Below are positions 1-3,000 of a stretch of DNA of 10,830 bases, in pieces. This stretch comes from a virus (taxonomy: Duplodnaviria; Heunggongvirae; Uroviricota; Caudoviricetes). Within the stretch, counting starts at the first letter, position 1; each line of letters opens with the position of its first letter. Made by a program: the position numbers. Where the stretch lies: IMG/VR virus record IMGVR_UViG_2563366997_000003; one strand, given 5' to 3'.

Positions 1-3000
1 ATGCCAAAGATTACAGACATGCAGATCCGCGCATGGATAAAGGCCGGAGATAGATTTGAAGGAAGGGCCGATGGCAACGGCCTTTATATTTGCTACCCCA
101 AAAACTACACAGTCCCTTTCTGGCGCTTTCGCTATAAATTCGCAGGTAAGCAGCGAGCAATGGTTATCGGCTCATATGCCGAGCTATCACTATCAAAGGC
201 CAGAGAGACAGCCAAAGAGCTATCGGCTCGCGTTGCGTTGGGCTATGACGTTGCAGGAGAGAAGCAGGAACGGAAAGCCGAAGCACTGGCGAAGATCGAA
301 GCAGAGAAGAATGCCATGCGCGTTTCAGAGCTTGCCGCTGAATACTTTGAGCGTCAGATCCTGCCGCGCTGGAAGCACCCAGATATACTCCGCCGCCGTA
401 TCGACAAAGATATAAACCCCTGCATTGGCAGCATGAAGGTAGAGGATGTGAAGCCGCGCCATATCGACGACATGCTGAAAAGTATTGTTGACCGTGGAGC
501 GCCGACCATAGCAACGGACGTGCTGAGATGGACGCGCCGCATATTCGACTACGGAATCAAACGGCACGCGCTGGAGATTAACCCCTGTTCAGCCTTTGAG
601 GTGGCAGACGCCGGAGGGAAAGAAGTTGCCCGTGACCGCTGGTTAACCCGCGATGAGTTAATCCAGCTATTCAAAGCCATGCGCACGGCTAAGGGATTCA
701 GTCGCCAGAACGAAATCACGTTCAAATTACTGTTAGCGTTATGCGTCCGCAAAATGGAGTTATGCGCCGCCCGCTGGGAGGAGTTCGATTTTGATAAAGC
801 CGTATGGCGCTTGCCAGAGGAACGCAGCAAAAACGGCGACGCTATAGACATCCCATTAGCACCGCCAGCCGTCGAATGGCTGAGAGAGCTTAAAACGTTC
901 TCATGCAACAGCGCATGGGTACTGCCAGCCAGAAAGATGCAAAACCGCATGATCCCCCATATTCAGGAAAGCACCCTGCCCGTAGCACTGGCGAAGGTTC
1001 GCGCTGAAATGCCGGACGTGCCGAACTTCACTATTCACGACTTCCGACGCACCGCACGTACTCATTTAGCAGCGCTGGGCGTTGATCCGGTAGTCGCAGA
1101 AAGATGCCTCAACCACAAAATTAAAGGCGTGGAAGGTATCTATAACCGTCACCAGTATTTTGATGAGCGTAAAGCGGCGCTGGCGCAGTGGTGTGATTTG
1201 CTGGTGGCACTGGAGCGCGGCGAAGAATACAACGTTACACCGCTGAGAAAGGCGAAGTAACCAAGATATGTAAAGAATCAGAGGACAGATTGAGCCTAGC
1301 CCGACGGGGCGAAAAGCGGGAAGCCTTACCGCCTGGCTCAATCACAAAATAAGGCGCAGCGTAAAAGGTGACGCAATGAAAAAACTACCACCAAATCTTT
1401 TTTTCCGACTTAATAGAGCAGCAAATTTATTAGAAATAGAAGTCGATGATCTTCTACTTATGGGAGTATCAGGCTCTATATTTTTGAGCACAATAATTCA
1501 CAAGTATGAAGGCGTACTCCTTCAAGCGGGAAACTTGCCACCAGAACACGGCAGCAAAGACATAGAAAACTTATTATTTGGTTCTATTATTTCTACTAGA
1601 GAAGATACCGAAAGATATCTAAATGAAGGTGTTTTCGATGGTATGAAGTGCTCAGCAAGTGGATTATGGCACGTTCCTAGAGATTTCATTGCTTCCCTTG
1701 CAGGGGTTAAGAGAGTCCCTGACATTCCACTCATATTCTCACCAGCATATATAAAAAAAGAACTAGACATCACATCAGGGCGTTACTTTTTCTACGATTT
1801 TCGCGAATATGATACCACCGTATCGTCTGTGGAAGATTTGTATATATCAAGACCGTGGGTTGAATATATAGCTGAAAGCATGGATAAAAATCAGCCAATA
1901 TCCAGCATACTCCATTTGGGTTCACACGATCTTTATGAAAAGGAATTTAAAAACATAGAGCATGGAAATAGAGCACGACATAGCCTAAACCGTGAGAATA
2001 GCATTATGGCGTTGATTTATGTGAAACGGCACTATCCTGAAGAGTGCAAAGGGAAAAACGGGAAAGAAACCAACGAAGCGTGGGCAAACGCTACGATAGA
2101 CCACTGGCCACATGTGGGTGGCGATTATGATGAACCATCTGCAGATTATTTAAAGAAGATCATATCTGACATGGACAGATTGCCGGAAAAACGTACCACG
2201 GCAGGAAAGAAGAAATCATGATAATAAAATTTAGTATCGTGACAATAAAATTTACTGTAATTCACTTTTGAGCATGCACACCATTAAATACCCGTAACGA
2301 AGCAACAACTATCGCTAAGAGGTTACGGGAATCATGAACATCGACACTATCCCTACAAAAGGCTATATCAGACGCTTTCGCCTGGCTGAATTGCTGGGCG
2401 TTAGTGTATCCACCATCGACCGTAAAGTAAGAAACGGTTCACTACCACGTCCGGTAAAGCTGGGAGAAAAAATAACTGCGTTTGATGCGGCTGATATTCA
2501 CAACTGGCTGGCGGAGCGCCGGGGAAAGGTGGCGTAATGGAAAAGAAAAACCGCCCATTACAGGCGGCTAATTCAGATATTCGCGGTACTGATATTACCC
2601 CGCCCACCAGCCCTGTACAAGTACCTAAGCGTACCCCAAAGAAACACCGCGCCCGCGTCTATATGCTGCGTACTGGTATAGAGGGATGGACAGAAAACGA
2701 TATTCTGCGTTATTGCCGCCTTTCGTCTGGAAGGAACTACGCCAGCGAGTTAGAGCGCAGGCTTGATATTCAGCTTGAGCGTATAGACGAAAAGAACCCC
2801 GACGGGATAGGGTCACATTTACGCTATCGCTTTACCGGGCGCGGTGACGTTCTAAAAGTTATTCGGCTTGTGAACCATAACGCCGACGCTGGCGGCTATC
2901 AGGGACTTTCTCAGCCTGAAATTGCCGACATTCTCAATCTATACCCGGACAATCTCACCGCCGCCTAACGGAGACTGAAAATGAACATCGAAAAAAGCAG

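Follow-up and report, generated by a model that had tools for sequence, protein, structure and literature searches.

Between the integrase gene (int) and alpA of the Vibrio satellites known as PICMIs (phage-inducible chromosomal minimalist islands) lies a slot in which 13 gene families of unknown function have been found (Barcia-Cruz et al. 2024, PMC10803314), and the genes concerned have been termed integrase-overlapping genes (iolg) or integrase-contiguous genes (icg) (PMC10803314). Deletion of iolg in PICMI115 abolished both excision and transfer, and the complementation used int and iolg together (PMC10803314). According to PMC6092414, neither the repressor nor the alpA inducer that the helper encodes is known for the Gram-negative phage-inducible chromosomal islands (PICIs). 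In the related PICI EcCIMP1 the slot holds a small, unrelated open reading frame (ORF) of unknown function, and superinfection immunity is conferred by an unknown gene (PMC11773190). The subject of the present analysis is the gene, here called X, that fills the int-alpA slot in a stretch of viral DNA of 10,830 nucleotides (IMG/VR record IMGVR_UViG_2563366997_000003; hereafter the window). This window represents the left-hand portion of a P4/PICI-like island that in Escherichia coli lies between yicC and dinD, and its closest copy, in E. coli EC21Z-137, is 98.5% identical over the first 3 kb. It was compared with a set of other island loci, designated L001, L002, L005 and so on.

Judged by position and layout, the closest described counterpart of the X slot is the iolg/icg slot of the PICMI satellites, the excision phenotype itself being known for PICMI115 only. 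Like iolg and icg, X is flanked by int and alpA and shares their strand, and with its 115-nt spacer to int it corresponds to the contiguous type. Both slots accommodate many unrelated families (13 for the PICMIs and a minimum of 3 for the E. coli yicC islands), and the 4-nt overlap of iolg with int recurs in the L007- and L010-type slot genes and in one member of the X family, L045 from a Vibrionaceae metagenome assembly; other Vibrionaceae members of the family are separated from int by 3 nt. The elements themselves differ, that of the window being ~12 kb long with a P4-type primase and a yicC-dinD location, whereas PICMIs are 6 kb long and lie beside fis. Assignment of the Vibrionaceae loci to the PICMIs by way of a neighboring fis gene was rejected, as no fis was present within the 8-kb stretches. 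By analogy with iolg, X may be an accessory factor coupled to Int and AlpA that licenses or tunes excision and integration; this is the function that we favor, tentatively and at somewhat less than even chances.

This proposal draws first on the genomic address of the gene. A P4-type integrase with an Arm-DNA-bind_3 domain was located directly upstream of X and on the same strand in all ten contexts that were looked up, and AlpA or a short AlpA-like ORF was located directly downstream in nine of them. The same arrangement was recovered by a context-blind scan, in which a hand-made degenerate DNA pattern of the N-terminal motif was run against one genome per species (185,579 species). The scan returned 19 loci, 18 of them with a readable ORF; all 17 loci in which this could be assessed have an integrase directly upstream, and an AlpA-like gene followed in 15 of 15 at a distance of 51-137 nt. 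These loci were found in Enterovibrio, Grimontia, Salinivibrio, a Vibrionaceae metagenome assembly, Pectobacterium, Arsukibacterium, Buttiauxella and Citrobacter and in eight Aeromonas contigs, and the X-family loci altogether span Enterobacterales, Aeromonas, Vibrionaceae and Alteromonadales. The attachment (att) sites of the islands differ (yicC, mipA, ssrA, der and a tRNA), and so do their backbones: the trio is found on satellites with a P4-type primase (the window, L011 and L012), on a Mob_Pre relaxase island of Aeromonas salmonicida with a PRTase-CE gene and no P4-type primase (L016), and on a YagK/YfjJ-Rep (inovirus G2P-like) island of Salinivibrio sharmensis, also with no P4-type primase (L036). 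In L036, a HipA kinase gene is present beside the integrase. This occurrence on several backbones links X with recombination and not with a particular helper or cargo function. In the contexts checked, X was never away from int and alpA, and in about 40 loci the slot held one gene only, being neither empty nor occupied by several genes, which runs counter to the preliminary description of X as cargo. Because the family always stands between a P4-type integrase and alpA where this could be checked, X more likely belongs to an excision or control module than to generic anti-phage cargo. The same description had compared the locus to intA-yfjH-alpA of the E. coli K-12 element CP4-57, and the comparison holds for position, as YfjH (318 aa) is of similar size and also lies between a P4-type integrase and alpA; it fails for orientation, yfjH being on the opposite strand, and YfjH was rejected as a homolog of X (hhalign probability 1.2%).

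Comparison of sister islands identifies the int-alpA interval as a replacement hotspot, as had been surmised. All 13 of the E. coli yicC-dinD islands inspected carry exactly one slot gene, on the + strand, encoding 208-321 aa with a GC content of 36-44%. Across eleven yicC islands the integrases are 89-99% identical, the products of ORF143 (the gene following alpA) 75-100% and AlpA 61-100%, against 14-100% for the slot protein, and four different slot proteins were found behind integrases that are at least 98% identical. A concatenated query of nine alleles detected a slot allele in 339 of 5,426 complete E. coli genomes. At least nine discrete alleles exist in this species, almost all matches being 97.7-100% identical to the query allele. 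In an evenly spaced sample of 60 matches, the L010 type was found 20 times, the L005 type 13 times, the L008 and window types seven times each, and the L004, L006 and L003 types six, four and two times, the remaining match being weak and partial; in all, the window allele was found in 38 E. coli genomes. E. coli 042 has it at 4199490-4200335. The N-terminal module is common to seven of the nine allele types. The other two, the L007 and L010 types, are unrelated, and their slot proteins were rejected as X-family members for want of any detectable similarity. When the window is compared with the E. coli 042-type lineage, synonymous divergence (dS) is 1.53 for int and nearly as great for ORF143 (1.23), but 0.15 for alpA and 0.029 for X. 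A block of 96-100% identity, from about 1287 to 2490, takes in the RNA motif upstream of X, X itself, the spacer and most of alpA, while its flanks are about 60-89% identical. These values indicate a recent exchange of the window allele between lineages of islands that have diverged deeply, in agreement with the horizontal acquisition previously suggested.

X is a real gene, with homologs in many genera and an AlphaFold2 model, made with 54 homologs, that reaches a mean predicted local distance difference test score (pLDDT) of 83. RefSeq holds the identical gene (WP_001565823.1), in agreement with the coordinates, length and strand given in the preliminary description, and the ORF is intact and full-length in 37 of the 38 E. 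coli genomes that carry the window allele. In E. coli H20 strain MIN6 (NZ_CP069692.1; H14, H63), an IS3-family transposase lies inside the region matching window positions 1-3000, and the direct match to X is limited to nt 344-846 of the gene; this copy therefore seems to be disrupted. The GC content of X is 39.5% (34.4% at third codon positions, GC3), as compared with 53.0% for int (GC3 59%), 50.0% for alpA, 51.2% for ORF143 and 50.7% for the whole window, and the lowest-GC 300-bp windows of the entire stretch fall in X (0.37-0.41); the X-alpA spacer (112 bp) is at 33.9%. The AT-rich island reported earlier is thus real, but its description as roughly one-third G+C was too strong and applies only to GC3 and to some 60-bp windows (25-57%). 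Since nine alternative slot genes of sister islands are also at 36-44% GC, low GC is a trait of the slot and not of the window allele.

Nor is X an orphan, as had been thought. A word-indexed search returned nine clusters only, whereas an exhaustive profile search found 173 clusters matching the X-family profile (clusters at 50% identity, E up to 1e-3). Family members are mostly 260-380 aa long, many of them matching the profile at both ends and not in the middle, and their named hosts include E. coli, Shigella, Salmonella, Enterobacter, Leclercia, Raoultella, Brenneria, Klebsiella and Aeromonas. Types L003 and L006 are linked to the family solely through intermediates (e.g., P0125 and P0024), a direct profile link for L003 having proved to be below significance. 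X itself had no match in Pfam (E up to 0.1), PADLOC (E up to 1), NCBIfam or PHROGs, a Pfam scan of 140 family members detected no domain, and HTH_17 was matched by one of 67 relatives (E 0.005). A sequence-profile search of PDB yielded a chance match only (E 1.1), and tblastn of X against 50,697 phage records yielded none; among plasmid records, the family is confined to the island itself in a circular copy. No paper in the literature searched names the family or gives a function for it. The lack of a recognizable catalytic motif, noted earlier by eye, was borne out by the domain searches, which detected no catalytic or known domain in X.

The proteins of this family are modular, with a constant N-terminus, a variable middle and swappable C-terminal modules (Table 1). 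Within the family, conservation is highest at the N-terminal motif PLEYCxxxRAAxLLxCExxDLLHWGxxGAIxL, and this end of the protein matches structures of the Xis, AlpA and MerR families. It can be aligned in register with the island's own AlpA, although the similarity is not significant (hhalign E 0.0025, probability 12%). In the aligned helix-turn-helix (HTH), AlpA has STIDRKVRNG where X has DDLLLMGVSG, composed of acidic or hydrophobic residues; the second (recognition) helix of X contains no Arg or Lys, the basic residues of AlpA being absent, and the calculated isoelectric point (pI) is 6.5 for the N-terminal module and 5.95 for the whole protein. Because of this replacement and the acidity of the protein, a canonical DNA-reading helix in X is doubtful. 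X resembles the Xis-AlpA-TorI-Vis excisionases (HTH_17 / Phage_AlpA) in adjoining the integrase and in having a winged helix; unlike these proteins, which are basic and about 55-80 aa long, X is acidic, has 281 aa and lacks Arg and Lys in the recognition helix. It has no significant match to excisionase or AlpA profiles, and the island already encodes a canonical AlpA. In the middle of the protein there are two conserved islands, GLW (aa 96-98) and DLYISR (aa 154-159). Beyond the N-terminal winged helix, no structural relative was detected in PDB or BFVD (none at E up to 0.001 in BFVD). The C-terminal module of the window allele, designated type A, has the motif HxNxERxAxNRExxLxAAIYxxxxxPxEC...WA and is common to the window, L005 and L008 alleles. 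Clustering of modules indicated that at least five C-terminal types interchange on the same X-family N-terminus.

The sequences on either side of X are of two kinds, conserved blocks and allele-specific stretches. In the window, the int-X spacer holds the int-alpA RNA motif only. This motif precedes X-family genes of several alleles, being found in L003-L006, L015, L017 and L021, and its outer stem is altered on both sides in L006/L009 (GACCGGAAC/GTTCCGGTC). In L011, L012, L018, L027, L033, L036, L042 and L045, int and X are separated or overlap by -11 to +10 nt. Downstream of X, the 5' half of the X-alpA spacer is allele-specific, with terminator-like hairpins in several alleles, and the 3' half is conserved; the promoter and terminator assignments within it are inferred from sequence. 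The two direct repeats of the window lie in the allele-specific half, just upstream of the putative alpA promoter, and their core motif occurs only here in the 27-kb L001 (2 matches versus 0.21 expected). The hexamers of the putative promoter and their spacing are kept in L011, L012 and L015, in which the spacer sequence differs; a sigma-70 scan of 1100-2600 returned no more sites than in shuffled sequences and missed the proposed promoter. The inverted repeat that follows has a predicted RNA fold of -13.6 kcal/mol (z -2.8) and is kept behind very different X alleles (L002-L012, L015 and L017), where it delimits the replaceable cassette on the right. Its role may be that of a translational hairpin or of a palindromic operator (e.g., one for autoregulation by AlpA). 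Both of its arms change together in L007 (CCTAAC/GTTAGG). The same AlpA (WP_001090781.1) is found behind entirely different spacers in L002 and L005, and the control of alpA may differ between slot alleles. The X-alpA spacer of L008 (2524-2629) contains TTGTATATCTATACAG, which is close to the LexA-box pattern CTGT-N8-ACAG, and a related palindrome, TGTTCATATATGTACA, is present in the L005 spacer.

Table 1. Features of the int-X-alpA region; positions are those of the window.
Feature	Coordinates	Strand	Description
P4-type tyrosine integrase (int)	1..1260	+	Pfam Arm-DNA-bind_3 + Phage_int_M + Phage_integrase
int-alpA RNA motif (Rfam RF02996)	1289..1355	+	Conserved hairpin; 62 bits vs gathering score 35.8
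Ribosome-binding site AAGGTG	1365..1370	+	5 nt before the X ATG; read from sequence
X	1376..2221	+	281 aa, pI 5.95; member of unnamed modular int-alpA family
N-terminal module of X, aa 1-50	1376..1525	+	Beta-alpha-alpha-beta winged helix, MerR/Xis/AlpA fold
Variable middle of X, aa 51-195	1526..1960	+	Beta-rich, acidic, pI 4.7
C-terminal helical module of X, type A, aa 196-268	1961..2179	+	pLDDT 90-98
Two 19-nt direct repeats, 21 bp apart	2215..2254	+	ATCATGATAATAAAATTTA / ATCGTGACAATAAAATTTA; first overlaps X stop codon
Putative alpA promoter	2261..2289	+	TTCACT-17 nt-TTAAAT; inferred from aligned spacers
Inverted repeat	2291..2329	+	CCCGTAAC-N23-GTTACGGG; around alpA Shine-Dalgarno sequence
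alpA	2334..2537	+	Pfam Phage_AlpA / HTH_17

In gene order, int, X and alpA form a fixed three-gene module on the P4-type-integrase islands of Gammaproteobacteria. If X does act with Int and AlpA, it would presumably be co-transcribed and co-expressed with int, with the RNA motif between the two genes in the window and translational coupling in other lineages. Its N-terminal winged helix would serve to dock X on a partner that stays constant (Int, AlpA, or the two in complex on DNA), each allele would owe its own behavior to the interchangeable modules of the middle and C-terminus, and the outcome would be the licensing or tuning of Int/AlpA-dependent excision and integration, as reported for PICMI115 iolg in the same slot. 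In favor of such a role are the synteny, which is strict across several backbones, the constant occupancy of the slot, the coupling of X to int, its fold of the Xis/AlpA type, the transfer of X together with alpA in the exchanged block, and the phenotype seen in PICMI115. Other observations weigh against it. Near-identical islands hold slot proteins of the L007 and L010 types, with no detectable similarity to X, so that either an interaction with Int has been re-invented or the function of the slot is generic. Alleles have been swapped on integrases that are at least 98% identical, and there is thus no sign of co-evolution with Int. The PICMI115 result could reflect a polar effect, because int and iolg overlap and complementation was obtained only with the two genes together. 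Finally, a low GC content, alleles that are discrete and of intermediate frequency, and lateral exchange in the recent past are also features of defense or exclusion genes. Indeed, X could be anti-phage or interference cargo, a single-gene defense or superinfection exclusion system operating from the quiescent island, with a middle region that recognizes a phage component and a slot equivalent to the PICI 5' immune hotspot; we consider this unlikely on balance, though with an appreciable chance. The low GC of all slot alleles, the existence of at least nine discrete E. coli alleles at intermediate frequencies, each 97.7-100% conserved internally, the dS of 0.029 against 1.5 for int, and the unrelated families that also fill the slot are all consistent with this explanation, as is the superinfection immunity conferred by the unidentified EcCIMP1 gene (PMC11773190). 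Immune systems are also reported at the 5' or 3' ends of PICIs (PMC11364771), a published statement that supports the earlier remark on accessory and anti-phage genes near int in these elements. X resembles the 5' accessory or immune region of Gram-negative PICIs (Fillol-Salom et al. 2022, as cited in PMC11364771) in being int-proximal in a PICI-like island (int, alpA, primase, PerC), in a slot that is low in GC, variable in content between related islands and laterally exchanged. X differs from that region in having no known defense domain, in a slot that always holds one gene (208-380 aa), in the N-terminal module shared by most slot alleles, and in its confinement to the int-alpA interval. 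Defense genes are usually promiscuous in genomic context, while X was never found outside that interval, and the constant occupancy of the slot, never by a multi-gene system, likewise argues against a defense role. So do the absence of any PADLOC, Pfam, NCBIfam or PHROG match for X and of any Pfam match for its 140 relatives, and the absence of the family from phage records and, other than as the circular island copy, from plasmids. PADLOC was also silent for nine of the ten other slot proteins, the exception being a weak match of the L005 allele to PDC-S31 (E 0.002), and no effector-like domain is present, PDB and BFVD being silent beyond the winged helix.

A regulatory role can also be envisaged, in which X would keep the island quiescent through the alpA promoter or AlpA until released by a helper protein, with inducers that are specific to each allele, in the manner of Stl of the Staphylococcus aureus pathogenicity islands (SaPIs), the counterpart of which in Gram-positive PICIs is called Rpr. 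X adjoins int, as Stl does, and lies directly upstream of the alpA control region; both proteins have an N-terminal HTH-type domain followed by a divergent, hypervariable remainder, and both exist as many alleles. The allele-specific 5' half of the spacer, with its hairpins, 21-bp repeats and putative alpA promoter, travels with X, the finding of WP_001090781.1 behind different spacers in L002 and L005 would fit allele-specific control, and the repressor and helper inducer of Gram-negative PICIs are a stated gap (PMC6092414). Nevertheless, X has no sequence or overall-fold relation to Stl, its recognition helix and pI are ill-suited to the part, and it is transcribed in the direction of alpA rather than divergently, with a terminator-like hairpin between the two genes in several alleles. 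The island moreover already has a P4-type RNA immunity region (isrK and C4, 4414-4626), the family also occurs on relaxase- and Rep-type islands, which need not have phage helpers, and deletion of the PICMI iolg blocks excision rather than de-repressing it. We therefore regard an Stl-like regulator as improbable. To a similarly small extent we entertain a helper-interface adaptor, in which a pseudo-excisionase N-terminus would sit on Int/AlpA and the swappable sensor and C-terminal modules would choose the licensing helper or competing element, making X a post-translational analog of Stl. Least plausible by far is a passenger, that is, a selfish or decaying ORF kept in place by recombination at the conserved hairpins flanking it. 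The cassette is indeed flanked by conserved blocks (the int-alpA RNA motif on the left, the inverted repeat of the alpA leader on the right), dN/dS is about 0.5 between the window and L002 alleles, as estimated from very few substitutions, and in one genome an IS3-family element lies inside X. Decay is difficult to reconcile with an ORF that is intact in 37 of 38 genomes, with motifs conserved across genera and a confident fold (pLDDT 83), and with a slot that is occupied in every locus examined.

In the enterobacterial islands studied, a single modular family, whose N-terminal domain is constant, accounts for most genes of the int-alpA slot. Hypothetical proteins that had been scattered thus become a third component, defined and open to testing, of a recombination module that is widespread, and the natural allele swaps on near-identical integrases are ready-made experiments. 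The family also bears on a question stated to be open, namely how helper phages switch on Gram-negative PICIs and whether a repressor exists (PMC6092414). Were X a helper-interface adaptor, int-X-alpA would constitute a portable, programmable recombination switch common to satellites and mobilizable islands; as a defense gene, X would represent a single-gene family that is new and whose genomic address is unusually strict.

Downstream of alpA, the window continues with ORF143, an AntA antirepressor and a DUF4222 protein, followed by an Icd/Ash region, the P4-type primase (6525-9023) and a PerC-like gene. ORF143 (2537-2968) has a 1-base overlap with the alpA stop codon and no Pfam match; it is named "PM1773 family protein" in some RefSeq genomes and is present, at the conservation given above, in all yicC islands. 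Rfam models for isrK (4414-4490, + strand, 71 bits) and the C4 antisense RNA (4539-4626, + strand, 81 bits) match side by side, a pair that resembles the RNA immunity regions of P4 and P1 type and is also found in L011, L012 and L017. A 314-aa ORF called mechanically at 3928-4872 overlaps the two of them and is perhaps not a genuine gene. The interval that follows the primase (9024-10335) is a second low-GC stretch (43%) containing ORF66 (9464-9664) and ORF223 (9664-10335), and looks like the accessory region next to pri that has been described for PICIs; L001, the closest island, has a hypothetical gene and a single-stranded DNA-binding protein (SSB) gene at this location. The ORF223 product contains a HEAGH zinc-protease-like motif, with weak matches to Peptidase_M41 and FtsH that extend only over the ~20-25 residues surrounding this motif, and had no match in PADLOC. 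Lastly, L022 is a circular 22,859-bp record (Klebsiella pneumoniae "plasmid unnamed1", NZ_CP033626.1) that was deposited as a non-mobilizable plasmid and carries int, an X-family gene, alpA, an ORF143-like gene, antA, a DUF4222 gene and an Icd-like gene. Its gene order fits a circularized island, as the pRiA4b ORF-3 gene, located at the far end of the island in L001, is found just before int, and L022 may be the excised, episomal form of such an island caught in an assembly.

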